Counted from the stretch's first letter, positions 3,785-63,767 are shown. The stretch is 64,000 bases of DNA from Candidatus Magasanikiibacteriota bacterium (GCA_943357105.1 CALRGC010000001.1:17045-81044), one strand, 5' to 3'. Numbers and translations are program-made. The notes: a model not told the origin generated them from the sequence alone.

Positions 3785-3950
3785 GAGAAGACATTTGGCA
3801 ATTTTTACCTGATAAAAGTTCGCATAATTGGCTATAAATTTTCGTTACGGCTCTAAGGGTAGAGCCGTTGCCCTGACGGGCACCACGAAAATTTACTTAC
3901 GCCAATTAGGGGCTCACTTTTATGCGGTAAAAATTGCCAAATGTCTTCTC
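3785..3950. repeat. Structured repeat family 1, copy 1: conserved ~130 bp core inside a 25-bp perfect copy-specific inverted repeat
   Basis: Terminal IR gagaagacatttggcaatttttacc / ggtaaaaattgccaaatgtcttctc; core is about 88% identical to 17006-17135; paired positions covary between the two copies. Confidence 0.8.
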
Positions 3951-5052
3951 AGTCTAGATTATTCTGGAATTGAGAAAACTGTTCGGTTACAAAATTTTTT
4001 ATTTCGTTTTTGAAACGGTCGGTAGAAAAATTTTGCGCGTGCGCGCGAATTTTGGCGCTGTCAAATGCGCTTGAGTCAAAATTCAGCAGTGTATGTAGTA
4101 GTGATTCCCAAGTTTGTTGTTCAAAAAATACTCCAGTTTCATTAGGCAAAACTGTTTCGGTAGCACCTCCCTGACTGTAAGCAATTACGGGGCGGCCAGC
4201 GGCCATGGCTTCGAGCGGAGTGATGCCAAAATCTTCTTTTTGGGGATGGATAAAGGCAATCGCTTCACTGAGAAGCTGAGCTTTTTCATCTTCGGAAATT
4301 TTTCCGTAAAATTCAATATTGGCCTTGGCGATTTTTTTCAGATAAGGATATTCTGATCCGATACCAAAAATTTTTAGCGGCCAACCCAGACGATTGAAAA
4401 CTTTTATTACTAAATCCAGGCGTTTGTATGGCACGAGGCGCCCACCGGCCACATAATAATTTCCTACTTTGGCCGCGGTTTGAAATCTATCGGTATCAAC
4501 CGGCGGAAAAATGACTTGACTGTCACGGCGATAATATTTATTGATGCGACGTTTTACCGTATTGGAATTGGCAATAAAATTATCTACGCGTTTAGTACTG
4601 AGTTGATCCCACAAACGCAAGCGATGAGTCAAAATTGGTAAGAAAATTTTTACCAGCCGATTATTTTTGAGATCCGACAGATAATTATTGCCGTCACCCC
4701 ACAAAAAACGCGGCGGGGTGTGACAATAGGCGATATGCAGAGTGTCGGTGGAGGTGATTATGCCCTTGGCAAACCCGGACGAAGAAGAAATAACCAGATC
4801 ATAGCCCTGGAGTTGGTGACGCTCGGTGGCTACAGGCATCAGTGGCAAATACCACTGGAAGATTTGATTGACAAAAGGCAAGCGATTGAGAAAAGAAGTA
4901 TGAATTTTATCCTGATCCAAATAATTTATTTTGTTGGCATCGTGAAATAAAACAAAAATTGGCGCGTCCGGCCAAATTTCGTGTAAGGCTTTGAGCACTC
5001 TCTCCGCCCCTCCATCTTGAGACAGATAGTCGTGAACTAGGGCGACCTTCAT
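3949..5052 (-). CDS. glycosyltransferase family 4
   Basis: 367 aa; N-terminal MKVALVHDYL; GT4-like; TGA stop at 3949-3951 overlaps the repeat IR. Confidence 0.75.
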   Translation of the reverse strand: MKVALVHDYLSQDGGAERVLKALHEIWPDAPIFVLFHDANKINYLDQDKIHTSFLNRLPFVNQIFQWYLPLMPVATERHQLQGYDLVISSSSGFAKGIITSTDTLHIAYCHTPPRFLWGDGNNYLSDLKNNRLVKIFLPILTHRLRLWDQLSTKRVDNFIANSNTVKRRINKYYRRDSQVIFPPVDTDRFQTAAKVGNYYVAGGRLVPYKRLDLVIKVFNRLGWPLKIFGIGSEYPYLKKIAKANIEFYGKISEDEKAQLLSEAIAFIHPQKEDFGITPLEAMAAGRPVIAYSQGGATETVLPNETGVFFEQQTWESLLHTLLNFDSSAFDSAKIRAHAQNFSTDRFKNEIKNFVTEQFSQFQNNLD

Positions 5053-6470
5053 ATGATGGATCCGGTTTTGCGCAAAACAATAAAAGGAGTTTTAATTAAA
5101 ATTACCAGATCGGTAAATAGGCTCCAATGTTCAATATAGAAAATATCCAGGCGCGCTTCTTCGTCAAAGCTCAGATTGCTACGTCCGGAAATCTGAGTAA
5201 TACCGGTGATGCCCGGTTTGATAGCCAGCACGGTTTTGTGCCATTTCTCATATTTGTTTACTTCGCGTTCCTGGTGAGGGCGCGGACCAACCAAACTCAT
5301 TTCACCCTTTAAAACATTATAAAATTGCGGAATTTCATCAATGCTCAATACACGAATAAAACGACCAAATGGGGTAATGCGCGGATCATTTTTTATTTTA
5401 TAAACCGGTCCTTTTTTTTCACTTTTTTCTTCAATTAATTTTTTTTCCAGTTTCAGCGCCTCTTGTCCGTTTTTACCAAACTGTTCGCCGGTGCAATATT
5501 TTTGGTACATTGAACGGAATTTGAGGGTAAGAAATTTTTTGCCTTCTTGCCCCACGCGTTCATTTTTATAAATAATCGGCGTTCCGGTTTCGAGCAAAAT
5601 TATTAACGAAGTAATCAAAAATATTGGCAGAAAAATTATCATTAAAAATAGACTGCCGACAATATCCACGGTGCGTTTGAGTATGCGACCCCAGCCACCC
5701 AGGCGGGTGCGACGCAATTCAATAATTGGAATGCCGGCAATCGTGGATACGGCCATATTGGAAGAAACGGTAGCGAAAAGGTCGGCCGAATATTTGAAAG
5801 TGATGTGGTGCTCGTTGGCAAAATCTATGGCTTGCAGAGCTTCATCTTCGTGACTCTTGGGATCGGTAAAAATAATTTCATCAATACCGGTTTTTTTCAA
5901 AGTTTTTAGTTGGTTTAAATTAAAATTAGGAATCTGTCCAATAATTTTATAACCAAAATGGGAATGTGAATCTAAAGTATTCAAAATTTGTTCTTCTATT
6001 TGGCCACTACCAATAATCACGGTGCGGCGCAGACCAAGCCCCAGGCGATAGCAGAGAATTTTTAGCAGTCGCCAAGCGATTCTGCCGGCATAAACATAGA
6101 TAATGGCAAAAATCCAACTAGCTAAAACCAAAAAGCGTGAATCAAATTTTTGGAAAGTAAAAAAGACATAAATTGTAATCGCGGCAAACCCAGTAGCACA
6201 GGCAAAAAAGACGCGATTGAGTTCGCTGGTGAGTTTGCGATTGGGATTGGCGCTGTATAACCCGGAAAAAGCGAAGATAACTATCCAGCCGCCCGCGACT
6301 ATAAGTGCCAATGGCCAATATTTTTCCCAAGGTAAATTAAAAATCACCGGACGAATGGCCGTAGTGATCTTGGCAAAACGCAAACTATAGGCCGTAAAGG
6401 CGGCCAATATCAGCATGAGATAATCTAGAGGTAGCTGTAAAAAAGTAAATGTAAGTTCAAAGCGTTTCAT
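5049..6470 (-). CDS. undecaprenyl-phosphate sugar phosphotransferase (WbaP/bacterial sugar transferase family)
   Basis: 473 aa; N-terminal TM helices; C-terminal sugar-transferase domain (LSIDEIPQFYNVLKGEMSLVGPRP); 4-nt overlap with the downstream GT gene. Confidence 0.8.
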   Translation of the reverse strand: MKRFELTFTFLQLPLDYLMLILAAFTAYSLRFAKITTAIRPVIFNLPWEKYWPLALIVAGGWIVIFAFSGLYSANPNRKLTSELNRVFFACATGFAAITIYVFFTFQKFDSRFLVLASWIFAIIYVYAGRIAWRLLKILCYRLGLGLRRTVIIGSGQIEEQILNTLDSHSHFGYKIIGQIPNFNLNQLKTLKKTGIDEIIFTDPKSHEDEALQAIDFANEHHITFKYSADLFATVSSNMAVSTIAGIPIIELRRTRLGGWGRILKRTVDIVGSLFLMIIFLPIFLITSLIILLETGTPIIYKNERVGQEGKKFLTLKFRSMYQKYCTGEQFGKNGQEALKLEKKLIEEKSEKKGPVYKIKNDPRITPFGRFIRVLSIDEIPQFYNVLKGEMSLVGPRPHQEREVNKYEKWHKTVLAIKPGITGITQISGRSNLSFDEEARLDIFYIEHWSLFTDLVILIKTPFIVLRKTGSII

Positions 6471-6529
6471 GCTCTATATTTTAAGGCAAAATGCCAATAT
6501 AGTCAATTTATTGACAAAAGTCGCATTTC

Positions 6530-6892
6530 GTGCAGAAGCTCGTCGGGGAGGCCATCCCCGCCGAAATGACCGTCGGCGGCGTCACCTATGAGATCCTCTC
6601 CTTCCACGAGGAAGGTGAAAACTCGGTCGGCGGCGGTGTCATGGTCGAGCGTTCCAAGACGCTCAACGCCCACCAGGGCAAAAAGGAGCGGGAACACCTT
6701 CTGGCCAACCAGGCCGACATTCCGGTGGCCTGCCGCGGCAGGACGGCTTTCGTCTTCACCGACGAAAGGCATCCTGACGTTCCCGACGAGGGCGTCTACT
6801 ATGTCTGCTGGCGCGACGGCCGCTGGGTCGAGGGCTGGGACTGGCTCGACGAAGACTGGGGTCGCGGCGACCGGGTGCTCCGTCGCAAGTAG
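6530..6892 (+). CDS. hypothetical protein encoded in a high-GC (~63%) island, probably foreign or a gene fragment
   Basis: GTG start; strong GC3 codon bias unlike its neighbours; antisense ORFs on the other strand are GC artefacts. Confidence 0.4.
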   Translation: MQKLVGEAIPAEMTVGGVTYEILSFHEEGENSVGGGVMVERSKTLNAHQGKKEREHLLANQADIPVACRGRTAFVFTDERHPDVPDEGVYYVCWRDGRWVEGWDWLDEDWGRGDRVLRRK

Positions 6893-7091
6893 CCCTAGGA
6901 TTCTGGGCACCTTGGTCCTCAAGGTCGCTTGGATCATCCTTCGGTTCACTTTGGTAATTGGCCCACATCAGTACGATCCTTCGGGATACGACTGGTGTGG
7001 GCGCTTCGTTTTTATGCTGGTTATGGTCTTAAAATAGGTTGACAAAAACACTTTTTGGATGTATGATAATAATATATAATTAGAAATAATT

Positions 7092-7328
7092 ATGCAAAAA
7101 AATAATTTACAATTTTCAGTTGTTTATCAACAAGATCTCGACGGTGGTTTTATTGCTACTGTTCCCGCTTTGCCTGGTTGCCATACTCAAGGAAAAGATT
7201 TATCTCAGACTACTTTTAGAATAAAAGAAGCGATAGATTTGTATTTGGAAAGTTTTAAATCTGAAAAATCTATTCGTCAGGCCGCACAAAAACAAATTTT
7301 ATTTGGAACGGTAATGATAGGTGGTTAG
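7092..7328 (+). CDS. hicB: HicB-family antitoxin
   Basis: 78 aa; HicB/UPF0150 N-terminal domain (FIATVPALPGCHTQGKDLSQ). Confidence 0.7.
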   Translation: MQKNNLQFSVVYQQDLDGGFIATVPALPGCHTQGKDLSQTTFRIKEAIDLYLESFKSEKSIRQAAQKQILFGTVMIGG

Positions 7329-7566
7329 TATGGTTAGCTTTAGTCAATTACCAAATCTAAAAGCAAAACAATTAGTGCGTGTTTTGGAAAAGATAGGTTT
7401 TGTGGTGGTCAGGCAAAAAGGCAGTCACGTTATTTTGGTTAATGAAAAAAGTAAACTGCGTACCGTTGTACCAGTGCACACAGGAGAAACAATTAGAAAA
7501 TCATTGTTGATGGAAATTATAAAACAAGTAAATTTAACGGTAGAGAATTTTTTGGAGTTGTTATAA
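7321..7566 (+). CDS. hicA: HicA-family mRNA interferase toxin
   Basis: 81 aa; KGSHVIL...VPVHTGETI motif; 8-nt overlap with hicB. Confidence 0.7.
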   Translation: MVSMVSFSQLPNLKAKQLVRVLEKIGFVVVRQKGSHVILVNEKSKLRTVVPVHTGETIRKSLLMEIIKQVNLTVENFLELL

Positions 7567-7579
7567 TTAGAAGTATATT

Positions 7580-7607
7580 CAAAATAGCCAAATAAGGCTA
7601 TTTTTTA
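7580..7607 (+). terminator. intrinsic terminator after hicA
   Basis: atagcc-aaataa-ggctat stem followed by a T-tract. Confidence 0.6.
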
Positions 7608-7660
7608 ATATCCAAGATTGACTTTTGCCCATAATTTAGATAAAATTAACCCATTAAAAT

Positions 7661-7960
7661 ATGCAATTAATAATCCTCGCTAGCCAAGTCAGTGATCCCG
7701 AACAGTTTATCCGCCGTTGTGGATATGGACAGCACCGCACGCGTACCGGTGAGACTAGTTATGTGAAGCGTGTGCATCGCGACTGGTATCCGCGTTTCCA
7801 TGTGTATGTGAAAAAACAGGGTGAAAATTTTGTTTTCAATCTGCATCTGGATCAGCGGGCGCCGGTATATGAAGGTCAGACCGCTCATGCCGGGGAATAT
7901 GACGGCGAAGTAGTAGAGCGAGAAATGGAAAGAATTAAAAGTTTTGTAGTAGCAGTATGA
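7661..7960 (+). CDS. hypothetical protein (99 aa) with a 4-nt overlap onto the adk start
   Basis: Non-repetitive ORF, slightly GC-elevated; ATGA overlap suggests translational coupling with adk. Confidence 0.4.
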   Translation: MQLIILASQVSDPEQFIRRCGYGQHRTRTGETSYVKRVHRDWYPRFHVYVKKQGENFVFNLHLDQRAPVYEGQTAHAGEYDGEVVEREMERIKSFVVAV

Positions 7961-8616
7961 AAAAAATATTAATATTTATTGGTCCACCAGGATCCGGCAA
8001 AGGCACTCAGGCCAAATTGTTGGCGCAAAAATACGGTTTTAAACATATTTCTACCGGTGATTTATTGCGCGCGCTTTCTGTGGATGCTAAAGCTAGCGCT
8101 GAACAGAAGACAGCTTTGGAAGAAATGAAAGCCGGTAAGCTCGTGCCTGATTGGTTGATCTATGAACTGGCTTTTGAGGCGGTGAAAGAAAATTTAGCAA
8201 GCGGTAAAGGCGTGGTACTCGATGGCGCGATTCGCAATGTTGAACAGGCCCAAAAATATCAAGATTTTTTTGAACAAAATGGTTGGAACGATGAAGTGGC
8301 GGTAATAGAAGTGGCCTTAAGTGACGAAGAAGCATTTAATCGCTTGACCAAGCGCCGTATTTGTAAAAATTGTGGTGAAATAATTCCCTATTTATCAGCT
8401 ACCAAAGATTTAGTTGATTGCCCTAAATGTGGTGGCAAATTAATTTATCGCCAAGATGATAAAAAAGAAATAATTGAAGCGCGTATTCGTGAACAAGGCA
8501 ACGAAGCCTTGAAGCCAATCGTGGATTTTTATGAAAAGTTGGGAATATTAAAAGTTTTGGACGGAAATCAAACTATTGAAAAAGTGAATGCTGAAATTTT
8601 TGCGTTATTTGAATAA
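7957..8616 (+). CDS. adk: adenylate kinase
   Basis: P-loop GPPGSGKGTQA; zinc lid CKNCG...CPKCG. Confidence 0.92.
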   Translation: MKKILIFIGPPGSGKGTQAKLLAQKYGFKHISTGDLLRALSVDAKASAEQKTALEEMKAGKLVPDWLIYELAFEAVKENLASGKGVVLDGAIRNVEQAQKYQDFFEQNGWNDEVAVIEVALSDEEAFNRLTKRRICKNCGEIIPYLSATKDLVDCPKCGGKLIYRQDDKKEIIEARIREQGNEALKPIVDFYEKLGILKVLDGNQTIEKVNAEIFALFE

Positions 8617-8625
8617 TTTTATCTT

Positions 8626-9438: not shown

Positions 9439-9476
9439 ATTTATCATTTCATAAATATTTTAATCTCTCTCGCCTG

Positions 9477-9596
9477 TGAAAATTCTCGGATAATTTGCAA
9501 CTCACTCCGGCTCTGGCCATGAACTCGTCGCTCGGCTCCTCAAACAGCAGGGCCAGCCACGCCTGCGTGACTCACAAATTATTTCCGAGAATTTTC
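9477..9596. repeat. Structured repeat family 2, copy A: GC-rich ~75 bp core flanked by a ~21 bp AT-rich inverted repeat
   Basis: IR tgaaaattctcggataatttg / caaattatttccgagaattttca; core matches the reverse complement of 63669-63747 at about 80% identity. Confidence 0.7.
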
Positions 9597-9597
9597 A

Positions 9598-10017
9598 ATG
9601 GCTCGTTCGATTAAAATATTTATTCCATTTTTATATATGAATATCCTTGCTATTGATTTTGGAACGAAAAATATTGGCCTGGCCTGGAGCGATACCGGGA
9701 TTGGGGTGGTGTTTCCGTTTGGGGTGATTAAGAATGAGGATAAGAATAAAGCTAAAAAAGAATTGCTCGATTTTATTAAAAAAGAACACGCGGAAAAATT
9801 GGTAGTGGGTCTGCCGCTTTCTCTGGATGGCGCGGAAAATAAAAACACTGAGCGTATTCGGGAATTTGTTGCAGATTTAAAAACCGATATCAAAGTAGAA
9901 TTTTTTGACGAGCGGTTTTCATCGGCGCAGGCGGATCGCTCCGAGGGTGGGGTGAGTCGCGATGAAAAATCGGCCATGATAATTTTGGAGGGATATTTGC
10001 ACAAGCTAAAAAAATAA
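9598..10017 (+). CDS. ruvX: Holliday-junction resolvase-like nuclease YqgF/RuvX
   Basis: 139 aa; N-terminal ILAIDFGTKNIGLA motif. Confidence 0.8.
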   Translation: MARSIKIFIPFLYMNILAIDFGTKNIGLAWSDTGIGVVFPFGVIKNEDKNKAKKELLDFIKKEHAEKLVVGLPLSLDGAENKNTERIREFVADLKTDIKVEFFDERFSSAQADRSEGGVSRDEKSAMIILEGYLHKLKK

Positions 10018-10020
10018 AGC

Positions 10021-10728: not shown

Positions 10729-10783
10729 TCAGTGGAGTGTGTTTTTATAAGTTATAATTATTTACTTTAAATTAAAATTATTG

Positions 10784-10803: not shown

Positions 10804-10812
10804 TTGAATTTT

Positions 10813-11901
10813 ATGCAACCGTATATTCCAGAGTCCCTGCCACTCAAAGAGTTAAATTGGGATAAGTATGTTTCTCTGATAGGCAAAGCTAATGCAGAAG
10901 TAGCCAGATTTGATGGTTTGCTACAAGGAATGCCAAATCCAGAAGTTTTGTTGTCGCCTCTTACTATGCAAGAAGCGGTTTTATCTTCCAAAATTGAAGG
11001 TACTATGGCATCTTTAAAGGATGTTTTAGAGTTTGAAGCTGATCCGCAAAAGAAAACAGAAAAATATGATGATATTCAAGAAGTTTTAAATTATAGAAAG
11101 GCAATGCGTTTTTCAGTAAAGGAAATGGAAACCCTGCCTCTGGTTAATAGGCTTATAAAAAATGTACATTCAATATTATTAGACAGTGTTCGCGGACAAA
11201 ATAAACAACCGGGTAGTTTTCGTAGTGGTCAAGTACATATTGGTAAACCAGGGAGTACCCTGGAAACCGCCACGTATGTTCCTCCTGTTCCAAATACAGT
11301 ATCGGATTGTATGAATAATTTGGAAAAGTATTTTCATTATGATGAAAAAGATTTTTTAGTCCAACTGGCCATCATTCATGGACAATTTGAAATTATTCAT
11401 CCGTTTTGGGACGGGAACGGTCGTATTGGTAGAATATTATTACCATTATTTTTATATTACAAAAAAGTTTTATCTACACCAATGTTCTATTTGAGCGCCT
11501 ATTTTGAATCTCACAGAGAAGAATACTATGATAAATTATTACATGTATCCAAGGATAAAGATTGGGATAGTTGGATTATTTATTTTTTACAAGCAATTAT
11601 AGAACAGTCACGAATAAATATAAAAAAGGCTACCGCAATCCATGCTCTGTATGATTCAAAAAAAGAAGAAATAATGAATCTTACCAACTCAAAGTACGCT
11701 ATTAAAACTTTAGATTTTATTTTTAGCTATCCTATTTTTAATAGCACCAATTTTATTAAAACATCCAAAATACCAAAACCTAGTGCTATGAGGGCTTTGT
11801 CGGCTTTAGAGAAAGGTGGTTTATTGAAGAAGATTCATGGTGGTTCCGGTAGAAAACCAGCCACCTATGTATTTGCTAAGTTGTTATCCATAGTTGGGTA
11901 G
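10813..11901 (+). CDS. fic: Fic/Doc family protein (AMPylase-type)
   Basis: Canonical Fic motif HPFWDGNGRIGR; ATG at 10813 preferred over TTG at 10804. Confidence 0.85.
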   Translation: MQPYIPESLPLKELNWDKYVSLIGKANAEVARFDGLLQGMPNPEVLLSPLTMQEAVLSSKIEGTMASLKDVLEFEADPQKKTEKYDDIQEVLNYRKAMRFSVKEMETLPLVNRLIKNVHSILLDSVRGQNKQPGSFRSGQVHIGKPGSTLETATYVPPVPNTVSDCMNNLEKYFHYDEKDFLVQLAIIHGQFEIIHPFWDGNGRIGRILLPLFLYYKKVLSTPMFYLSAYFESHREEYYDKLLHVSKDKDWDSWIIYFLQAIIEQSRINIKKATAIHALYDSKKEEIMNLTNSKYAIKTLDFIFSYPIFNSTNFIKTSKIPKPSAMRALSALEKGGLLKKIHGGSGRKPATYVFAKLLSIVG

Positions 11902-11919
11902 TAGTGTATCATGTAATCA

Positions 11920-11997
11920 ACACTAAATATCTTGTGTATCAAATATTGAAATAAATGACACACTAAATATCTTGTGTATCAAATGGCATATTTAGTA
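11920..11997. repeat. Two 25-bp direct repeats (acactaaatatcttgtgtatcaaat) 40 bp apart, plus inverted half-sites (atatttagt)
   Basis: Exact 25-mer at 11920-11944 and 11960-11984; reverse-complement half-sites at 11988-12010. Confidence 0.7.
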
Positions 11998-12212: not shown

Positions 12213-12488
12213 ATGAAATTATATACCAAAATTAAAAGTCAACTTCTTAAAGATAAGCTAACTCGTAAGGCCTATAAAGACCTGGGTGTGGAATTTATGT
12301 TAGCACAAATGGTAATCGAGAAACGCCTTGCCAAGGGATTTACTCAAGCCACTTTGGCCCATAAATTAGGCACTAAGCAGTCCGCAATCGCGAGGCTTGA
12401 ATCTGGTAATTATAACCCGTCCCTAGCCTTTATGGAAAAAATTGCTAAGGCGCTAGATACAAAATTGAAAATTTCTCTAGTAAAATAA
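12213..12488 (+). CDS. XRE-family helix-turn-helix transcriptional regulator
   Basis: 91 aa; HTH LAQMVIEKRLAKGFTQATLAHKLGTKQSAIARLESG. Confidence 0.8.
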   Translation: MKLYTKIKSQLLKDKLTRKAYKDLGVEFMLAQMVIEKRLAKGFTQATLAHKLGTKQSAIARLESGNYNPSLAFMEKIAKALDTKLKISLVK

Positions 12489-14609: not shown

Positions 14610-15182
14610 TTATTCTTTTTTTAGCGAGATTTTTTTAATAAATTTTTTAGTTTGTTTTGTTATTCTAATAGTGTATTTATCCGCATTTTTTGTTTTTATT
14701 TTATACAAATTAGCCTTAAAATTTAACCGAGCGATCATTTTTAAAACTTCATCGGCTAATTTCGGTATTATTGTTACAAAATTTACCATTATATATCCTC
14801 GATCGGAATAAATGGATCCGTCGGTTTCTATTAGTCCGCGCAGACATTCAATAGAAAATTTTTTATTATTCAATATCCATTTTGGTATTTTAATATTTTG
14901 TTTATGTTTCGGCCCATTATTTGCTTTCCAGCCAAGCAATTTTTCCCATTGATTGGAATAACAGCTGATATCGCAACAATTTTGTTTTCTGGTGACTATA
15001 GAAATTTTATTTTTAGACATTATTTCTCGTATAACTTCAATAATCCTTTGTCGCAATTTAGGATATTTATTATCACAAGTAATCCGTAGTCGTACGGCGC
15101 GTCCGTTGGGATTAGAAAGATTACCGTCGCCAATGGCGAGGCCTATTAGATAAGCTAGTTTACCCCTCCTAGTTTGAAGCAT
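14610..15182 (-). CDS. LAGLIDADG-family homing endonuclease (two motifs), free-standing, starting 3 nt after tRNA-Leu
   Basis: Motifs LIGLAIGDGNL and LRGLIETDGSI; the annotated ORF extension to 15242 overlaps the tRNA, so the internal ATG at 15182 was chosen. Confidence 0.7.
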   Translation of the reverse strand: MLQTRRGKLAYLIGLAIGDGNLSNPNGRAVRLRITCDNKYPKLRQRIIEVIREIMSKNKISIVTRKQNCCDISCYSNQWEKLLGWKANNGPKHKQNIKIPKWILNNKKFSIECLRGLIETDGSIYSDRGYIMVNFVTIIPKLADEVLKMIARLNFKANLYKIKTKNADKYTIRITKQTKKFIKKISLKKE

Positions 15183-15185
15183 ATT

Positions 15186-15270
15186 TGGTGCCGATGGTGG
15201 GACTTGAACCCACAAACCCGAAGGCACATGATTTTGAGTCATGCATGTTTACCAATTTCATCACATCGGC
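15186..15270 (-). tRNA. tRNA-Leu (anticodon CAA), long variable arm, CCA encoded
   Basis: Cloverleaf: acceptor GCCGATG/CATCGGC; anticodon loop CTCAAAA; T-loop GGTTCAAGTCC. Confidence 0.8.
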
Positions 15271-16126: not shown

Positions 16127-16976
16127 TATGTCATTAGGACGAGGATTAGGCGCGCTTATAACGCCCACCGGAAAAAATAATTCAGTCAGTGTCAGTGCCG
16201 ATGAAGGTAAAGTTTGGTTTATACCGCTGAGCAAAGTGACGGCTGATCCCAATCAGCCGCGTAAAAAATTTAATCAAGAGGAATTAAATCAATTAGCCGC
16301 GTCAATAAAAGAGCATGGCGTGCTTCAACCGATTTTGGTAGTAGAAAAAAACGACGGTGGTTATGAGTTGGTGGCTGGTGAACGCCGCTGGCGTGCTTCG
16401 CACATCGCGGGCATGACCACAATTCCGGCTTTAATTAAAAAATTGGCCGATCAACAAAAAGTAGAAATTTCTTTGATTGAAAATATTCAGCGCCAAGATT
16501 TGGATCCGATCGAAGAAGCCTTTGCGTATAAAAGATTGATGGAAGAATTTAATCTCACTCAGCAACAGGTGGCGGATAAAGTTGGCAAGAGTCGTCCGGC
16601 GGTGGCCAACGCGGTGCGATTGTTGGATTTACCGGTAGAGGTGCAGGCGGCTTTGGTAGAGAGGAAGATAAATTCTGGTCAGGCGCGTGCCTTGTTGGCT
16701 TTATCGACTGAAAAAGAACAGCTAGATATGCTCGCCTCGATGATGGGAGAAAAAATCACCGTGCGTGAGATTGAGCGTGAAGCCAACAAACAAAAAGTTT
16801 TGCATCATCGGCCGATTCGCAAAGATGCCAATCTGTTATTTTTGGAAGATAAATTGCGGGCGGAGTTTGGGACAAAAGTTAATATTACTCAAAAGGGGGA
16901 TAGAGGGACCGTCGTGATTGATTATTATTCGCAGGAGGAATTGAAGCGGGTGATTAAAAAATTACTTGGTGAATAA
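16116..16976 (+). CDS. parB: chromosome partitioning protein ParB/Spo0J
   Basis: ParB box GERRWRA; HTH. Confidence 0.9.
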   Translation: MKNNMSLGRGLGALITPTGKNNSVSVSADEGKVWFIPLSKVTADPNQPRKKFNQEELNQLAASIKEHGVLQPILVVEKNDGGYELVAGERRWRASHIAGMTTIPALIKKLADQQKVEISLIENIQRQDLDPIEEAFAYKRLMEEFNLTQQQVADKVGKSRPAVANAVRLLDLPVEVQAALVERKINSGQARALLALSTEKEQLDMLASMMGEKITVREIEREANKQKVLHHRPIRKDANLLFLEDKLRAEFGTKVNITQKGDRGTVVIDYYSQEELKRVIKKLLGE

Positions 16977-16987
16977 ATTTTTAAAAT

Positions 16988-17152
16988 AAAAAAGACTTTG
17001 GATTTTTTACCTGATAAAAGTTCGCATAATTGGCTATAAATTTTCGTTATGGCCCTAAGGGTAGGGCCATTGGCCTTACGGCCACCACTCAAATTTACTT
17101 AACGCCAATTAGGGGCTCACTTTTATGCGGTAAAAAATCCAAAGTCTTTTTT
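16988..17152. repeat. Structured repeat family 1, copy 2, between convergent parB and tsaD
   Basis: IR aaaaaagactttggattttttacc / ggtaaaaaatccaaagtctttttt; core about 88% identical to copy 1 with compensatory changes; A-tract and T-tract flanks. Confidence 0.8.
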
Positions 17153-17155
17153 ATT

Positions 17156-18235
17156 TTAAAAATTGAGGTGCCAATTTGGGTCTGCCTTTATATCCTCCCA
17201 TTTTGTATAATTATTCTTTTGGGCTTGGTAATATCCGGCCACGGCAATCATCGCGCCGTTATCCATGCAGTATTTTAATTCTGGGCAGAGGAATTTTGTG
17301 TCTGGGAAATTGTCGGTAATATTTTTTTGTAAACATTCCCGTAGTTTTTTATTGGCGCTGACGCCGCCAGCCAGCACCAAAGTTTTTGGTTTTATTTTTT
17401 CTACGGCCTTGAGAGTTTTATAGGCCAACACATCTACTATCGACTGTTCAAAGCTGGCGCAGAAATCTTCGCGGGTGATTGGGTCACCGGAGATACCTAG
17501 TCGGCTTGGCAACCAAGAAAAAATTTTTCCAATTCCAGTAGGATTTACAGCAGCTAGTTTATGATCCCGTAGCCAATACAGTGCGGCGGTTTTTAATCCG
17601 GAAAAAGAAAATTCAAAATTATTTTCTTTGATCATCGGACGCGGTAAATTTATCGCGTCAGTTTTGCCATTCATCGCCAGTTTGGAAATTTGAGGACCAC
17701 CGGGATAGGGAATATCCAATAATTTAGCGACTTTATCAAAACATTCACCAGCGGCATCATCTTTGGTGGCGCCGAGCACTTTATAACTTCCCGGTTCATT
17801 AATTTGGACTATTTCAGTATGACCTCCGCTCACGACTAGAGCAATCGCGGGATATTCGATTTTTTGTCCCGGCGTTAATTCCACCGAATATACATGACCC
17901 TGGAGATGATTGGTCGCAATAAGTGGGATGTTCCAGACCATAGATAAAGTGCGAGCGGCTTCCACGCCCACAATCAATCCGGTGATTAAGCCAGGTCCAG
18001 CCGTGACCGCGATGGCGTCAGGTTTCGGTTGGTCTTTGAGAATTTCTTCAATCAGTGGAATAATTTTTTCGGCATGCATGCGTCCGGCGATTTCCGGCAC
18101 TACACCGCCGTATTTTTTATGCACATCAATTTGCGAAGCAGTTTTTTCGGATAACACAACACAGCCTTGTTCACTACAATCTAGTAGTGCTACGGAAGTA
18201 TCATCACAAGATGATTCAATGCCAAGTATAATCAT
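17156..18235 (-). CDS. tsaD: tRNA N6-adenosine threonylcarbamoyltransferase TsaD
   Basis: 359 aa; Kae1/TsaD family (MIILGIESSCDDTSVALL). Confidence 0.9.
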   Translation of the reverse strand: MIILGIESSCDDTSVALLDCSEQGCVVLSEKTASQIDVHKKYGGVVPEIAGRMHAEKIIPLIEEILKDQPKPDAIAVTAGPGLITGLIVGVEAARTLSMVWNIPLIATNHLQGHVYSVELTPGQKIEYPAIALVVSGGHTEIVQINEPGSYKVLGATKDDAAGECFDKVAKLLDIPYPGGPQISKLAMNGKTDAINLPRPMIKENNFEFSFSGLKTAALYWLRDHKLAAVNPTGIGKIFSWLPSRLGISGDPITREDFCASFEQSIVDVLAYKTLKAVEKIKPKTLVLAGGVSANKKLRECLQKNITDNFPDTKFLCPELKYCMDNGAMIAVAGYYQAQKNNYTKWEDIKADPNWHLNF

Positions 18236-24013: not shown

Positions 24014-24064
24014 TTTTTTTAACAAAAAATACCCTCGATATATTTCCAGGGTATTTTATTTTTA

Positions 24065-28424: not shown

Positions 28425-28466
28425 AAAAACACCTCGGAAAAAATTTCGAGGTGTTTTTAATTTTCT
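28425..28466. terminator. bidirectional terminator between the convergent doxX-like and ABC-F genes
   Basis: acacctcg...cgaggtgt stem between A- and T-tracts. Confidence 0.65.
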
Positions 28467-34997: not shown

Positions 34998-35078
34998 TTG
35001 TCCACCCCGACCCCCGGCTTAAGACACCTGCGCTTTCTTACGTCGCTTCGCTCCTATCTTTCCACTGTCGGGGTGTCC

Positions 35079-35113
35079 AAAAACAAAAAAACCGTCGCAA
35101 GACGGTTTTTTTG
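35079..35113. terminator. bidirectional terminator (accgtc-gcaa-gacggt) between tRNA and hup
   Basis: A-tract / stem / T-tract. Confidence 0.7.
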
Positions 35114-35430: not shown

Positions 35431-35533
35431 GTAACAGGGAGGCAAATTACTTTTGAGCGGGTTATGAGGCCAAGCCTCATCCTTTCGCCCTCGCGGGCGA
35501 AAAAAGCGAAAAAGTCATTTGCCTCACTGTTAC
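35431..35533. repeat. Structured repeat family 3, copy 1: ~57 bp GC-rich core with two short hairpins inside a copy-specific ~24-bp inverted repeat
   Basis: Core gagcgggttatgaggccaagcctcatcctttcgccctcgcgggcgaaaaaagcgaaaa is identical in 47331-47388; flanks gtaacagggaggcaaattactttt / aaaagtcatttgcctcactgttac. Confidence 0.75.
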
Positions 35534-35599
35534 GAAACTATTATATCATAGCAACCATTTTTTCGCTACAATAGGCGATAATCACTTTTCCACAGCTCT

Positions 35600-40759: not shown

Positions 40760-40797
40760 TAAAAAACACTCGAATATTCGAGTGTTTTTTATTTTTT
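40760..40797 (+). terminator. intrinsic terminator after trxA
   Basis: acactcgaatattcgagtgt palindrome plus T-tract. Confidence 0.7.
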
Positions 40798-47305: not shown

Positions 47306-47411
47306 AAAAAACACGGCGCATAGTTACCTTTGAGCGGGTTATGAGGCCAAGCCTCATCCTTTCGCCCTCGCGGGCGAAAAAAGCGAAAAGGTCACTGTGC
47401 GCCGTGTTTTT
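47306..47411. repeat. Structured repeat family 3, copy 2, inserted in the loop of a canonical bidirectional terminator (acacggcgca/tgcgccgtgt with A- and T-tracts)
   Basis: Same core as 35454-35511; flanks aaaaacacggcgcatagttaccttt / aaaggtcactgtgcgccgtgttttt. Confidence 0.75.
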
Positions 47412-56930: not shown

Positions 56931-56977
56931 TCTATAAAAAGAAAAAGACCACAATTTTGTGGTCTTTTTTATAAATT

Positions 56978-57310
56978 TTATTTTGCTTCCTGTAATTTGC
57001 GTTTGAAATCCGGATTGCGTAAGTAGTTGAGGCGAGCACGGCGCACAGCCATCTGTTTTACTACTTCGATTTTGTCCACTACGGGAGAATAGATTGGGAA
57101 GATTTTTTCCACACCGACACCGTCGGAAACTTTGCGAACGGTAATGGTGGATCCGGCCTCTTTGCCGTGTTTGGCGGCAATTACTGTGCCTTCAAAGATC
57201 TGGATACGCTCTTTTTCTTCACCCTTGGTATTCATTTCTTTAATTTTTTGGTGGACTTTTACCACCATGCCCGGCTTGTAGATAACAGCCGTATTAGTAT
57301 TTTCAGTCAT
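56978..57310 (-). CDS. rplS: 50S ribosomal protein L19
   Basis: L19 family ([12 protein letters not shown]...[15 protein letters not shown]). Confidence 0.9.
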
Positions 57311-57392
57311 AAGATTATTTTAGCTTTTAACAGTGGGCTTATTTTAGCCGATTTTTTGAATTTTGTCAATATCTGGTCGGTTTAGTCGTTTT

Positions 57393-57953: not shown

Positions 57954-57954
57954 A

Positions 57955-58920: not shown

Positions 58921-59502
58921 TTAGATTGATAATTTGATACGCGGAGCGGTTGGCCGGCCGCTGTTACTAGGTAAATTAGGAATGGAAGGATTATTTTTAT
59001 TTCTAATGGAGCTGGCAATACCACTGGAACCGTGGATGGTTTGACCGGCTGACACCACTCTGGTTTGGTCGCCAATCTGACTGACTTTAGCCGATGGTTG
59101 GCCAGCAATTGAAGTAATGCCGTGTGACTGAATTTCATCGCCGGCGCGGATAATGTCGCGACGAATGACCGGTTTCATCAGATGATGACTTAATTTTTTT
59201 ACGGCTTCGTGTTCGGTGGCGCTGAGATGTTCGCCTTTCATCGCCGCTTCGTGGCTGATTTTATGCATCATTTTTTCCGCTTGATTTTTGCTTAAACCGC
59301 CACGGCGAATGAGGTGTTGATTTTTTAGAACTACCGCGTTGATGACTTCTACCGCTACTTTGTTATCCTTGAGCGTGCCCATGCCGTGATAATTATTGAT
59401 AACGGCACTATGAAGTTTGCCGGCAAAACCGGAAGTATGTTTGGCTTGAAAAGACAAACCCGGCTTGGCGGTTGGCGAACTAAAATGTTCTAAAATTGAC
59501 AT
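58921..59502 (-). CDS. hypothetical protein (193 aa), translationally coupled to rluD
   Basis: Start/stop overlap with rluD; no recognisable motif. Confidence 0.45.
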   Translation of the reverse strand: MSILEHFSSPTAKPGLSFQAKHTSGFAGKLHSAVINNYHGMGTLKDNKVAVEVINAVVLKNQHLIRRGGLSKNQAEKMMHKISHEAAMKGEHLSATEHEAVKKLSHHLMKPVIRRDIIRAGDEIQSHGITSIAGQPSAKVSQIGDQTRVVSAGQTIHGSSGIASSIRNKNNPSIPNLPSNSGRPTAPRIKLSI

Positions 59503-59517
59503 ATGTAAGAATTATTG

Positions 59518-59591
59518 TGCTCCCAGATGGACTTGAACCATCGACCACCAAATTATAAGTCTGGTGCTCTAACCAGCTGAGCTATGGGAGC
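59518..59591 (-). tRNA. tRNA-Ile with UAU anticodon (AUA decoder)
   Basis: Acceptor GCTCCCA/TGGGAGC; anticodon loop CTTATAA; Ile-type D and T arms. Confidence 0.7.
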
Positions 59592-60254
59592 ATATTTAGC
59601 AGTTTCTGCCACTAACCTTAGCTGCATCATTATTTTTTGTTTTAATTCTACACTGTAAAATGCGATTCTGCAAGTCCCATGGCCAAATCCGCCCTTGTGG
59701 TTTATTCTGCTTAAATTAGTATTTTTTATGTATGGTTTTCTAAATTGTTTATGTGATATTTCTAAAATTTTAGACCAATAATTAGTTTCTTTTTTTATGT
59801 TCATATCATTATATAAATGCAACGTTACCACTAGGTCTTTTTTATTAATTTCGTATATATTTTTTAGCCATACAATAAAAAATTTAAGTATATCAGGGTC
59901 AGTGTTGGTAATTGCAACTTTAGACCAATCTGATTTTGATCCTTCTCCCCAGTAAAGAGCCAGACCGGTAAGCATAATATCTCGCCTTGATAATTTTTTA
60001 ATATTATTTTTTTCAGCACTGTATATTTCTTCAAGTTTTAGCACCCTCTTTTTTGCCATTGTTTGTCTAAATTTTTCAATCCTTGATTCGTTTCTGTCGC
60101 GTAATTTTTTAATAATAGATTTTGGTAGTGGATAATCTTTTAACCAGCTACTTAGGGTGCTTTTGGGCACCCCGAGCCTATTTTTTATTTGTGAATAACT
60201 CAAGTTTCTTTTTCGTAAAAAAATTACCTTTTCCCTCAATTTTATATTAGACAT
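59553..60254 (-). CDS. HTH plus degenerate LAGLIDADG-like (LTGLALYWGEGS) endonuclease-like protein in a very AT-rich island; 3' end overlaps tRNA-Ile by 39 nt
   Basis: N-terminal HTH (LSYSQIKNRLGVPKSTLSSWL); single LAGLIDADG-like motif; about 25% GC. Confidence 0.5.
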   Translation of the reverse strand: MSNIKLREKVIFLRKRNLSYSQIKNRLGVPKSTLSSWLKDYPLPKSIIKKLRDRNESRIEKFRQTMAKKRVLKLEEIYSAEKNNIKKLSRRDIMLTGLALYWGEGSKSDWSKVAITNTDPDILKFFIVWLKNIYEINKKDLVVTLHLYNDMNIKKETNYWSKILEISHKQFRKPYIKNTNLSRINHKGGFGHGTCRIAFYSVELKQKIMMQLRLVAETAKYAPIAQLVRAPDL

Positions 60255-60403
60255 ATGAATGTATATATTATGGCACTAATCTATAGGTTCAATATTATAT
60301 TATTTTAGCATAAAAAATTAAAGAATTCAAATTTTAGTTTTATTTATTAGCTGTTTTATATAGGGTTGCCAAGGAGGCTAAAAATTGGTAAAATTGGAGC
60401 ACT

Positions 60404-60937
60404 ATGAATTGGAATGATAAACTATTCTTAAGGATTAATGCTAGTGTGGGCCAAAATCGTTGGCTGGATGCTTTTGGGCGCGCTGGGGCCGAATGGGTGG
60501 TAGTAGGCATGGGCGGTTGGTATGCTACCGTGAGCTTTATTTTGCATTATGGCAACCAGCATTTGATGTGGTTGCCAATTTTTACTTTTGCCGGTGCTGA
60601 AATTTTTGGTTTGCTAGTCAGTAATATATTAGGGCTAGTTTTTCAAGAAGTGAGACCACGTTTACGTTTCCCCGAGATTAAAATTTTGTTTTTGCCGGCG
60701 TCGCCTTGGAAATCTTTTCCTTCCGATCACAGCATGACAGTTTTTTTAATATTTTTTTTAGCGCTGGCCTTTGGTTTTCCGACTGCTTGGTCGCTCTTGC
60801 CGCTGGCTTTATGGGTAGCTTGGGGCAGAGTATATAGCGGCGTGCATTATCCAATAGATATTTTAGGCGGTATTACTTTGGCCGCGTTTGTGTCGGTGTT
60901 GGCCTGTGCCGTTTTGTTACATTTTAATTTGATTTAA
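60404..60937 (+). CDS. PAP2-family membrane phosphatase (undecaprenyl-diphosphatase-like)
   Basis: PAP2 motifs PSDHS and SGVHYPIDILGG. Confidence 0.8.
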   Translation: MNWNDKLFLRINASVGQNRWLDAFGRAGAEWVVVGMGGWYATVSFILHYGNQHLMWLPIFTFAGAEIFGLLVSNILGLVFQEVRPRLRFPEIKILFLPASPWKSFPSDHSMTVFLIFFLALAFGFPTAWSLLPLALWVAWGRVYSGVHYPIDILGGITLAAFVSVLACAVLLHFNLI

Positions 60938-60944
60938 ATTCAAT

Positions 60945-61637
60945 ATGAAAGCGATTATTTTGGCTGGGGGACTTGGTACCAGGTTGCGTCCTTTGACGGA
61001 CATTACTCCCAAACCACTTTTGCCCATAAAAGGTAAACCAATCATTGAACATGCGATTTTGAATTTTAAAAAACACGGCATCAAGGATATTATTTTATCG
61101 ATTGGTTATAAGGCCGAAACTATTAAAGAATATTTTGGCGACGGAAAAAAATGGGAAGTGAAAATTAGTTACGCGGTGGAGGATCAGCCGCTTGGTACGG
61201 GCGGCGCCTTGAAGATGGCTTCGACGGGAGTGAAAGAAACTTTTGTGGCTATCAATGGCGACAATCTGGCGGATTTTGATTGGACTGCGGCAATAGAAAC
61301 GCATAAAAAAAATAAAGCTAAAGTGACTTTACAGCTTTTTCCGGTGGAAGATGTTACGAAGTTTGGAATCGCGCGTTTGGATGATGGGAAAATTGTGGAA
61401 TTTATTGAAAAACCAACAGTGGAACAGGCGCCTTCTAATTTGAATAATGCCGGTGGTTATATTTTAGAAGCGGATGCCTTGGATATTTTGCCGGAAGGGT
61501 TTTGTATGATTGAAAAGGATTGTTTTGAGAAATTAGCTTCGACTGGAGTGGTGTTTGCGCATCATCATGGTGGACAGTGGTTTCCGACGGACACGATTGA
61601 GAAATATACTCACGCGGATGAGAATTTTAATCCATGA
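60945..61637 (+). CDS. sugar-1-phosphate nucleotidylyltransferase
   Basis: LAGGLGTRLRPLT signature; TGA stop. Confidence 0.8.
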   Translation: MKAIILAGGLGTRLRPLTDITPKPLLPIKGKPIIEHAILNFKKHGIKDIILSIGYKAETIKEYFGDGKKWEVKISYAVEDQPLGTGGALKMASTGVKETFVAINGDNLADFDWTAAIETHKKNKAKVTLQLFPVEDVTKFGIARLDDGKIVEFIEKPTVEQAPSNLNNAGGYILEADALDILPEGFCMIEKDCFEKLASTGVVFAHHHGGQWFPTDTIEKYTHADENFNP

Positions 61638-62503
61638 ATTTAATTTTTGAAAAATATAAATTTCTCCTCATTCCGACGGCACTGGCGATTTTTTTATTTG
61701 GAGGACTGCTGTCTTACAGACATTTTAGCCGGCCTAAGCGTGTGGCGATACCACCGCGGGCGGAAATAAATATTACGATTATTCCCGGGTGGAATTTGCG
61801 TCAGATCGCGGCCGATTGGCAGGCCAAAGGTCTGATAAAATCCGAGGATGAATTGTATGATTTGGTAGGCAAACCGGCTTATAATTACAAAGCGCATGCG
61901 CGCAGAGCGCCGGTTTTGGATTTTGTTTCCACTTCGAGCTTTGATTATTTTTTTGCCGGTAAATCAAAATATTTATCTTATGAGGGATATTTTTTACCGG
62001 ATACTTATCGGGTATATGCTGACGCGAACGCCAAAGATATTATCAAAAAAATATTTAATCATTTAGATGAAGATATTACTCCGGAAATGCGCGCGGAAAT
62101 TTCACGTCAAGGGAAAAGTTTCCAAGATATTTTAAATATGGCTTCGGTGGTGGAAAAAGAAGCGCCGACGGCGGATAGTATGGGGATGGTGGCGGATATT
62201 TTTTGGCGCCGCCTCAAGTCTGGTTGGCCTTTGCAATCTTGCGCCACGATAAATTATATCACCGGCAAAAATGATCCGGCCGCTTCGGCCAAAGACAAAG
62301 TGATTGATTCTCTCTATAATACTTATAAGTACCCGGGTCTGCCTCTTGGACCGATTAGCAACCCAAGTTTTAATGCTATTAAGGCCGTGATTTATCCGAT
62401 AAAAAATGATTATTGGTATTTTATGAGCGGTACGGATGGACAATTGCATTTCGCGAAGACTCTAGACGAGCACAATCGGAATGTTTATAAATATTTACGG
62501 TAG
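61634..62503 (+). CDS. mltG: endolytic murein transglycosylase MltG/YceG
   Basis: N-terminal TM; YceG domain. Confidence 0.85.
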   Translation: MNLIFEKYKFLLIPTALAIFLFGGLLSYRHFSRPKRVAIPPRAEINITIIPGWNLRQIAADWQAKGLIKSEDELYDLVGKPAYNYKAHARRAPVLDFVSTSSFDYFFAGKSKYLSYEGYFLPDTYRVYADANAKDIIKKIFNHLDEDITPEMRAEISRQGKSFQDILNMASVVEKEAPTADSMGMVADIFWRRLKSGWPLQSCATINYITGKNDPAASAKDKVIDSLYNTYKYPGLPLGPISNPSFNAIKAVIYPIKNDYWYFMSGTDGQLHFAKTLDEHNRNVYKYLR

Positions 62504-62517
62504 ACATAAATATTTTT

Positions 62518-63615
62518 ATGAAAACAAAAGATTTTGATTATTTTCTTCCACACGAATTAATCGCGCAATTCCCAGCGGAGCCGCGGGATTCTTCACGGTT
62601 GATGGTGGTGGATAAAAATACTCAGCAGACAAAGCATGAACATTTTTACGATATTATAAATTATTTGCAAGCAGGGGATTTGCTGGTGTGGAATAATTCC
62701 AAAGTTTTTAAGGCGCGTTTGCGGGGAACGATTGAACTGGATGAAAAAACCGCGGATACTAAAATTCCGGCCAATGCCACAGATAAAATTCTCAACGCCG
62801 CTAAGGTAGAAATATTTTTGGTGCGGCCGATGGAAAATTTTGGCGTGTGGAAGGCGCTGGCCAAACCAGGGAGAAAATTGCGCCTGGGAATAAAAATAAT
62901 ATTTGCTAAAGATTTTTTTGCGGAAGTAATTTCCAAAGAGAGTGATGGCACATTTTTATTGCAATTTAAAGATGATGATATGGAAGTGCGCGCTAAAGCC
63001 AATAAGTATGGCGAAGTGCCAACACCGCCATATATTAAATCCGGTGAATTTGCCAATTTGGATAAACGCTATCAGACGGTGTATGCCAAGCACGAAGGCT
63101 CGGTGGCCGCACCCACGGCCGGGTTTCATTTCACACCGGAGCTGATAGAGAAATTAGAAAAAAAGGGAGTGCAGTTTGCTGAAGTAACATTACATGTTGG
63201 ACTCGGTACTTTTATGCCAGTAAAGACTGAGGCAATCGAAGATCACAAAATGCACAGTGAATGGGTAGAGCTATCCGACAAAAATGCGCATCTAATAAAT
63301 AACGCCAAAGCCGAAGGTCGCCGCGTCATCGCGGTCGGCACTACTACTGTGCGCACCGTCGAAGGCTTGGCTCTAAAATTTGCCAAAGATCAGCTTGAAC
63401 CATATCAAGGCGATATAAATATTTTTATCACGCCTGGTTTTAAATTTAAAATGATTGACGCGTTGATTACCAATTTTCATTTACCGCAGTCTACACTTTT
63501 GATGCTCGTTTCCGCTTTTGCTGGTGACAGGGAATTTATGCTCAAATGTTATGAAGAAGCCGTAAAAGAAGAATATCGATTCTTTAGTTTTGGTGATGCG
63601 ATGTTGATAAAATAG
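62518..63615 (+). CDS. queA: S-adenosylmethionine:tRNA ribosyltransferase-isomerase
   Basis: 365 aa; QueA family. Confidence 0.9.
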   Translation: MKTKDFDYFLPHELIAQFPAEPRDSSRLMVVDKNTQQTKHEHFYDIINYLQAGDLLVWNNSKVFKARLRGTIELDEKTADTKIPANATDKILNAAKVEIFLVRPMENFGVWKALAKPGRKLRLGIKIIFAKDFFAEVISKESDGTFLLQFKDDDMEVRAKANKYGEVPTPPYIKSGEFANLDKRYQTVYAKHEGSVAAPTAGFHFTPELIEKLEKKGVQFAEVTLHVGLGTFMPVKTEAIEDHKMHSEWVELSDKNAHLINNAKAEGRRVIAVGTTTVRTVEGLALKFAKDQLEPYQGDINIFITPGFKFKMIDALITNFHLPQSTLLMLVSAFAGDREFMLKCYEEAVKEEYRFFSFGDAMLIK

Positions 63616-63646
63616 AGAAACAAATATTTTTATTGAACGAACCGCT

Positions 63647-63767
63647 GAAAACACGAGGAAATAATTTGTGAGCCGACGAGGCGTGGCTGGCTCTGCTGTT
63701 TGAGGAGCGTCAAGCGACGAATTCAGAGCCAGAGCTTCGGCGGGTTGCAAATTATCCGAGTGTTTTC
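63647..63767. repeat. Structured repeat family 2, copy B (inverted orientation relative to copy A)
   Basis: IR gaaaacacgaggaaataatttg / caaattatccgagtgttttc; core about 80% identical to the reverse complement of 9498-9573, including a compensatory pair change. Confidence 0.7.

Follow-up and report, generated by a model that had tools for sequence, protein, structure and literature searches.

What are the GC-rich segments, each closed by a long inverted repeat, that recur between the genes of a 64,000-nt stretch of a Candidatus Magasanikiibacteriota genome (GCA_943357105.1, CALRGC010000001.1:17045-81044; the whole stretch is referred to below as the window), and how did their arms come to be complementary? 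The first-pass annotation distinguished six such copies in three unrelated families, here called F1, F2 and F3 (with c1 and c2 for the first and second copy in the window), and offered two explanations: small mobile elements inserting into the loops of terminator hairpins, or structured RNAs at gene 3' ends, whose long closing stems are maintained by selection. Our analysis retains the mobility, but neither the terminator loop as the target nor the selected RNA stem. [quoted passage not shown] Their architecture, in which a conserved centre is surrounded by co-evolving arms that reach into the flanking DNA, is unusual. The window (GC content ~41%) is a part of a 437-kb metagenome contig (ena:ERZ27280322:k141_34775), and its AsnRS and QueA proteins have homologues with 90–94% identity, of which those that are named belong to Candidatus Magasanikbacteria (Patescibacteria, or Candidate Phyla Radiation, CPR). 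The orthologous regions of relatives were retrieved via homologues of AsnRS, InfB and QueA; L-numbers (L005, L008, L010, L038, etc.) denote the sequences examined.

Searches of the window for direct and inverted repeats recovered three mutually unrelated two-copy families at the places where the first-pass annotation had put them, and all six copies are indeed intergenic. Each of them folds as one long hairpin with a GC-rich centre. F1c1 (3776-3959, + strand; GC-rich core ~3820-3915) and F1c2 (16976-17164, +; arms of 46 nt with 44/46 positions paired and the outer 16 bp perfect) have the same orientation and are ~87–90% identical. F2c1 (35431-35533, +) and F2c2 (47307-47411, +) also share their orientation, and their 53-nt cores are 100% identical. 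F3c1 (9451-9623, +) and F3c2 (whole hairpin at 63609-63805, element proper at 63622-63792 on the minus strand) are oppositely oriented and ~82% identical. The elements measure 103–197 nt, the arms of the six copies are 24–51 nt long, 82–96% complementary and 55–97 nt apart, and the loops are GC-rich (GC fraction 0.46–0.60, vs 0.07–0.40 in the arms). A- and T-tracts, reported earlier outside F1c2 and F3c2, were seen there and outside F2c2 as well (A5 and T5), and a U tract is present at 3/6 copies only. A census of inverted repeats of this type revealed 12 in the window, six of which are F1–F3 copies, vs 0–3 in each of 20 shuffled sequences, and the folding z-scores of the six copies range from -5.5 to -13; thus, the observation is real and far beyond chance.

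The evidence for insertion comes from the orthologous sites of relatives. Between two glycosyltransferase genes (GT/GT), the 186 nt filled by F1c1 in the window correspond to a 2-nt gap in L008 and to an overlap of the genes in a 93%-identical relative (empty in 2/2 relatives); the two upstream proteins end at the same codon, and the stop codon of the window gene lies inside the element arm. The Map/RuvX site, occupied by F3c1 in the window, carries an orthologous, diverged F3 copy in L008 (6797-6975) and is empty in 3/4 relatives, with spacers of 1 nt (the 93%-identical relative), 4 nt (L030) and 37 nt (L031). The leader of the HU gene, occupied by F2c1, harbours F2 at the same position in L010, with the whole hairpin inverted, and is empty, with no hairpin, in 3/4 relatives (L011, L013 and L014). 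The QueA/L11 site, occupied by F3c2, is empty in L038, and F3 was not seen within the 33 nt of this site available in L039, which makes 1–2 relatives with an empty site. The reverse situation was found at DnaE/RelA: the window has nothing there (0 nt, empty), L010 has a plain terminator, and L011 carries F2. ParB/TsaD, filled by F1c2 in the window, exhibits F2 at the same junction in L008, and at S8/L6 a further hairpin family is inserted in L031, where L030 has a 23-nt spacer. F2 is spread over five genomes and four different sites; a covariance model of F2 run over 418 kb of relatives returned the six known copies and none further. The HU-leader copy of L010 retains its stem but has lost core hairpin 1 (core z = -3.7), i.e. 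an orthologous core has decayed, and it is sense to HU, while the window copy is antisense, which indicates inversion in place. Sister genomes therefore do not share the elements throughout their orthologous sites but differ in presence/absence; the elements insert, and they are gained or lost on the time-scale of species divergence. Insertion goes into short intergenic spacers without a pre-existing hairpin, and the elements are polymorphic among close relatives, flip in place and decay at old sites.

How an arm is made can be read at the QueA/L11 junction. The empty site of L038, whose QueA is 90% identical to that of the window, reads ...TTGATAAAATAAAGAAAT directly followed by AAAAAAATCCCTCGATTTTATTCGGGGGATTTTT, whereas the window reads ...TTGATAAAATAGAGAAAC, then F3 (63622-63792), GTTTCTCTATTTT, TGAGAAT and AAAAAAATCCCTCGATTTTACTCGGGGGATTTTT, which amounts to a 191-nt insertion between flanks that are ~93% identical. 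The left outer arm of F3c2 (63609-63621, +, AAAATAGAGAAAC) is the 3' end of queA with its stop codon TAG (63613-63615), and its counterpart in L038 is AAAATAAAGAAAT; since the empty site has this arm too, the end of queA was there before the element. The arm on the right (63793-63805, +, GTTTCTCTATTTT) is a perfect 13-nt inverted copy of 63609-63621 that L038 lacks, so the outer stem arose anew, through duplication of the flank in inverted form. The junction provides a clean natural case of a perfect stem created by reverse copying of flanking DNA; long perfect stems and "compensatory" changes can arise mutationally, and covariation alone is not evidence for a selected RNA structure. Judging from the sequence, GAGAAT (63807-63812, +) is the probable second copy of a ~7-bp target-site duplication, with GAGAAAC (63615-63621) as the first copy. 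At Map/RuvX in L008, TCAAATTT and TCAATTT stand on either side of F3, and a single TCAATTT is present in the empty L031 site. No direct target duplication was evident for the F1 or F2 copies. Weaker signs of flank copying were seen elsewhere: by direct reading, the left flank of F1c1 matches the reverse complement of the 3' end of the glycosyltransferase gene at 11/16 positions, with the element-proximal 5 bp perfect, and the right arm of F1c2 takes in the end of tsaD (see below).

The same junction bears on the proposal that existing intrinsic-terminator hairpins receive a short, mobile, GC-rich core in their loop, so that the flanks of the core are automatically inverted repeats. The queA/rplK bidirectional terminator (AAAAATCCCTCGA-TTTTAC-TCGGGGGATTTTT, 63815-63846, +) is conserved in L038, and a terminator scan predicted this plain terminator and not F3c2. 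Since it stands intact beside F3c2 and does not surround it, F3c2 is not inside a terminator loop, and one of the two arms has no precursor in the empty site. The empty GT/GT, Map/RuvX and HU-leader sites are devoid of a hairpin as well, and the inner arms conserved within the families (see below) indicate that these arms travel with the element. Insertion into terminator loops thus fails at every site where it can be tested, is refuted for 4/6 window copies, and appears unlikely as a general explanation, despite several features that agree with it. The copies at convergent junctions (F1c2, F2c2, F3c2 and those of L011 and L008) exhibit an outer A-tract, a stem and a T-tract, plain terminators in this genome start with AAAACAC, and so do the arms of F2c2 and an inner F3 layer, ParB/TsaD is occupied by different families in two genomes, and F2c1 and F2c2 combine identical cores with different outer arms. 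F1c2, F2c2 and F3c2 resemble intrinsic bidirectional terminators in lying between convergent genes with these tracts, but the elements do not show the typical combination of a GC-rich stem, a loop of 3–8 nt and a U tract: their loops span 55–150 nt and contain hairpins of their own, and three copies lack the U tract. The stems at ParB/TsaD (F1c2) and ldh/rnj (F2c2) are AAAAAAGACTTTGGA and AAAAACACGGCGCA, respectively, and there is no empty comparator for these two sites; capture of an ancestral terminator stem could still account for F1c2, F2c2, the inner layer of F3 and the outer layers of F2c2 and the L011 copy. F2c2 and the L011 copy occupy non-orthologous sites, yet their outer arms resemble each other (a resemblance reached in 7/5000 shuffles). 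Stereotyped plain bidirectional terminators, in which (C)AC/CC-CTCG(A/G) and then a short loop lie between an A-tract and a T-tract, were noted at 28426-28457, 40763-40788, 24021-24062 and 63815-63846, and these four may be related in sequence to one another.

The elements are layered. One or two small hairpins make up the GC-rich centre, which is surrounded by inner arms conserved within the family, with fixed asymmetric mismatches, and then by variable outer arms. The earlier description of the arms as unique to each copy holds for the outermost 5–16 bp, which alone are private to a single copy, but not for the inner arms, which are conserved within F1, F2 and F3. The two F1 copies agree fully in their inner arm, TTTTTACCTGATAAAAGT / ACTTTTATGCGGTAAAAA, and in its 2x2 mismatch (ACC-TG-ATAAAAGT / ACTTTTAT-GC-GGT), and the next layer, AAGAC(A)TTTGG, is common to both copies, with an indel mirrored in both arms (GACATTTGG/CCAAATGTC vs GACTTTGG/CCAAAGTC). 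In F2, the inner arm CAAATTACYTTT / AAAARGTCATTTG is largely common to 5/6 copies, while the arms of the L005 copy differ; the tetranucleotide TTAC is kept in 5/6 copies and GTCA in 4/6 (GTGA in L011), and the pairing of TTAC with GTCA involves a U·C mismatch in four copies and U·G in L011. The F3 arms are ~80% identical between copies, including a fixed pyrimidine-rich 6x6 internal loop. Among the F2 copies, the cores are 72–100% identical and the arms 36–75%, and the cores exhibit 91–94% identity between genomes whose proteins are 75–87% identical. Mobilisation may require the core, which would keep it conserved in active lineages, or the cores may be homogenised between copies; these identities fit both readings.

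The arms have changed in sequence and stayed complementary. In the closing helix of F2, 16/22 pairs are changed on both sides, the cells comprise 35 two-sided vs 4 one-sided changes, and 94.6% are paired, vs 41–48% if the partner columns are slid; in F3 (three sequences), double changes affect 15/58 pairs. Across the arms of all eleven copies, 385 pairs are Watson-Crick, 7 are G·U and 6 are A·C; a further 79 are mismatches of other types, many of them in family-fixed internal loops. Used as a test for the RNA strand, the comparison of G·U with A·C (7 vs 6) revealed neither an excess of wobble pairs nor a strand asymmetry, and the orientation with respect to transcription is kept neither at the HU leader nor between the F3 copies. 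The mirrored changes, the rarity of G·U and the flips fit a DNA palindrome kept by copying better than a selected RNA.

These counts also make it unlikely that the elements are structured RNAs, i.e. small RNA genes or cis-acting modules of 3' or 5' untranslated regions, with functional cores and with closing stems kept by selection, for instance for RNase III processing or for protection against exonucleases. The cores are GC-rich in an AT-rich genome and the folding z-scores are strong, as would be expected of such RNAs; the F1 core covaries (ACGGCTC/GAGCCGT vs ATGGCCC/GGGCCAT, and GCCC/GGGC vs GGCC/GGCC), as does the F2 core in hairpin 2 of L005 and in hairpin 1 of L008 and L011; the F2 cores are well conserved between genomes; and F2c1 would be a 5'-terminal hairpin on the HU mRNA of a lineage that has both RNase J and RNase Y. 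This is opposed by the presence/absence at orthologous sites, by the F2 copies that are sense to HU in one genome and antisense in the other, by the opposed F3 copies within one genome, and by the scarcity of G·U, which is as rare as A·C in ~400 pairs. Moreover, perfect duplexes of 25–46 bp would be substrates for RNase III, the orthologous core in L010 has decayed, and own promoters were not seen at the elements. Families of Rfam 15 do not match either: at the gathering threshold, only RNase P and five tRNAs were identified in the window and no family explains the elements at five loci, and E-value scans of F1, F2 and F3 gave only generic hairpin or chance matches. The 3'-end RNAs with selected stems envisaged by the first-pass annotation are therefore not supported. 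As for coding capacity, six-frame translations of the elements revealed no reading frame conserved between copies, and a chimeric peptide query assembled from all six frames had no match at E<=1 among 5.8 billion proteins.

In the reading that we prefer, that of mobile palindromes, fold-back (intra-strand) template switching in the course of replication would maintain the complementarity in the DNA itself and lengthen it. Whatever changes in one arm, indels included, would be copied onto the other arm, and the palindrome would grow outward as the adjacent flank is copied in reverse complement, which would generate the copy-specific outer arms. Such outward copying may sometimes run into the stop codons or terminal codons of neighbouring genes, and the copying of an A-rich flank would produce the look of a bidirectional terminator. 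The conserved centres could most simply be recognition sites of a mobilising enzyme that is not encoded in the window.

A number of observations weigh against this reading. No transposase, integrase or reverse transcriptase was found in or near the window (83.5 kb of contig), and the same 83.5 kb of this genome contain just two copies per family, none further having been found in the 19.5 kb of contig added to the window, so that abundance is unproven. The copying of a flank is cleanly demonstrated at one empty site only, QueA/L11, and both putative F3 target-site duplications are imperfect. The F2 core identity of 91–100% across genomes calls for selection on the core or for recent spread, and the fixed internal mismatches that persist in the arms imply that homogenisation is incomplete. 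Finally, the F2 copy of L005 has two arm mismatches, each of which is G·U on one strand, and a U-G pair in one of its core hairpins, which leaves some room for constraint at the RNA level. With regard to the vehicle, scans of viral contigs with the three cores gave 0 matches and BLAST searches of phages and plasmids gave none, which argues that the elements are not phage- or plasmid-borne; a 23-mer from the F2 core had one match, in a Magasanikbacteria metagenome-assembled genome, in a collection of representative genomes that does not include the window species.

Or perhaps the inverted flank copy could be a part of the insertion itself? In such a case, fold-back or hairpin-primed integration would give inverted, and not only direct, target duplications, and the next moving unit would be whatever folds as one hairpin. 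We consider this quite unlikely; if it were true, the elements would accrete layers, including captured terminator stems (e.g. AAAACAC...GTGTTTT inside F3), and would be portable bidirectional terminators in reduced CPR genomes.

The mobile-palindrome reading invites comparison with known systems. In typical MITEs (bacterial examples are Correia, ERIC, RUP and the Coxiella QMITEs), the terminal repeats are fixed and the target is duplicated in direct orientation only. F1–F3 resemble the elements of the bacterial MITE literature (PMC10969869, PMC3184786, PMC5896051) in their size (100–200 nt, below the usual limit of ~300 bp), lack of coding capacity, terminal inverted repeats, dispersed intergenic copies with presence/absence between strains, the possible short target duplication of F3, and the potential to act as terminators or mRNA stabilisers. 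They differ in that a cognate insertion sequence (IS) with matching ends was not found, the arms differ between copies yet stay complementary, and the outermost arm is made from the local flank. [quoted passage not shown] Like them, F1–F3 are short non-coding intergenic long hairpins that form families within a genome and carry compensatory changes on both sides, and they are probably mobilised in trans as well. However, REP arms are invariant around a variable centre, whereas in F1–F3 this arrangement is reversed, with a conserved centre and varying outer arms; in addition, a RAYT gene was not seen in the window, the copy number is apparently low, and growth of the palindrome into flanking DNA is not described for REPINs. 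Quasipalindrome correction occurs in bacteria. Intra-strand template switching is documented to create and to repair perfect stems, and gives rise to perfect reverse-complement repeats and multi-base "compensatory" changes in one event (Monttinen & Loytynoja 2022, PMC8794818), and such one-step creation of a stem matches both the 13-nt copy at QueA/L11 and the two-arm indel of F1. That study concerns rRNA and other RNA genes, while here the mechanism would enlarge a mobile palindrome.

Another type of mobile element seems highly doubtful, namely that F2, and perhaps F1, is a palindrome-associated derivative of an IS200/IS605-type single-strand transposon, whose left and right end hairpins would correspond to the two hairpins of the core, and whose cleavage and target sites would be TTAC and GTCA. 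The two small GC-rich hairpins of the F2 core recall the subterminal hairpins of that family and its miniature derivatives (PATEs), TTAC borders F2 and recalls the fixed tetra- or pentanucleotide beside which such elements insert, both tetranucleotides are conserved in sequence despite their mismatched pairing, F2 has no clear direct target duplication, and the REPIN literature ties hairpin elements to the IS200/IS605-like RAYT enzymes (PMC3116915). But the ends of that family, miniatures included, are not long inverted repeats, whereas F2 has long arms; ~8 nt to the left of TTAC are conserved too, which is too much for a target tetranucleotide; neither a Y1 transposase (TnpA) nor TnpB was seen in the window; and the orientation of the copies shows no bias and is inconsistent with respect to a constant GC skew. 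Least credible, and refuted by the analysis, are ordinary terminators lengthened by drift or chance inverted repeats, since, even if some copies stand where terminators are expected, the census exceeds the shuffles, cores of 53–130 nt are common to distant loci and to different genomes, and three copies lie where no terminator is expected.

The location at gene 3' ends or between convergent genes that had been reported for all copies is too narrow: F1c2, F2c2 and F3c2 lie between convergent genes, the other three do not. F1c2 fills the entire convergent ParB/TsaD spacer, the outer part of its right arm taking in the last two codons and the stop codon of tsaD (17156-17164); F2c2 lies in the convergent ldh/rnj spacer, and F3c2 between convergent queA and rplK. 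F1c1 separates two GT4 glycosyltransferase genes that run in the same direction, the upstream one having its stop codon TGA (3949-3951) in the right arm of the element and the downstream one its ATG at 3760-3762; F3c1 is situated between co-directional map and ruvX. F2c1 lies between rny (RNase Y) and the HU gene. Five genomes conserve a TGnTATAAT box upstream of HU (in the window at 35540-35548, minus strand), and F2c1 begins 8 nt downstream of this box; it thus sits at the 5' end of the HU leader, antisense to HU.

These positions suggest that the elements alter the ends of genes, with stop and terminal codons inside their arms, and that the HU mRNA gains a large hairpin at its 5' end: with F2c1, this mRNA would begin in a stem-loop, in a lineage in which RNase J and RNase Y are both used. 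An element that separates co-transcribed genes would be a long duplex open to RNase III. At some convergent junctions the elements are probably the sole terminator; in particular, the hairpins of F1c2 (ParB/TsaD) and F2c2 (ldh/rnj) probably serve, as far as can be judged from their sequences, as bidirectional terminators, there being no other candidate at either junction. Unitigs of the short-read assembly end within F1c1, F2c2 and F3c2, and repeats of this kind fragment short-read assemblies of uncultured organisms. CPR/Patescibacteria have small genomes, which are regarded as poor in mobile DNA, and comparable repeat families for these bacteria were found neither in Rfam, nor in phage and plasmid collections, nor in the literature searched. 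Other long GC-centred hairpins, unrelated to F1–F3, were observed in the more distant Magasanikbacteria L012 (19926-20109) and L031 (2769-2870), which indicates that the architecture recurs across the lineage with different cores.

A fourth, single-copy example proposed at 35003-35080 (+) did not find support. It comprises a 12-bp imperfect stem around a GC-rich stretch of 53–57 nt directly after tRNA-Met, has no second copy and no homologue in relatives. Between tRNA-Met and HU, relatives (L010, 6371-6953; L011, 2932-3409) have a promoter and a small, markedly GC-rich open reading frame (ORF) for a lysine/arginine-rich peptide, and the window has only the GC-rich stub at 35003-35080 and a terminator; similarity of the stub to that ORF was not above the shuffled null, and the idea that it is a remnant was rejected. 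Several further assignments of F1–F3 were considered from the sequence and dropped, given their dispersed housekeeping-gene context: a dif/Xer-like reading of GTTCGCATAA in F1, for which there is no second half-site, and parS, integron attC or hammerhead-like cores.

Some other features of the region deserve mention. A HicB/HicA toxin-antitoxin pair (window ~7092-7566, +; Pfam annotation of L033) is located between the glycosyltransferase cluster and adk-map. A LAGLIDADG_3 homing-endonuclease-type ORF (14610-15242, -) abuts or overlaps tRNA-Leu(CAA) (15186-15270, -), and relatives have a similar ORF there. The spacer that separates a Fic-domain gene (10804-11901) from an HTH_3 gene (12213-12488) contains a 25-nt direct repeat without mismatches (ACACTAAATATCTTGTGTATCAAAT, at 11920-11944 and 11960-11984, 40 nt apart), which resembles paired operator sites; the 93%-identical relative has, in place of this segment, a diversity-generating retroelement (bAvd + RVT_1) upstream of asnS. 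A tRNA-Ile with the anticodon UAU (tat; 59517-59591, -) represents an uncommon bacterial way to read AUA. Finally, a type III hammerhead ribozyme (53.4 bits, vs the Rfam gathering threshold of 48.5) was identified in L035 (14590-14643, +; ~67107-67160 in window numbering), 3.1 kb past the window end. Upstream of gyrB, it adjoins a stretch of locally high GC (0.51-0.56) that contains two unannotated ORFs, and it may mark another small mobile or foreign segment.

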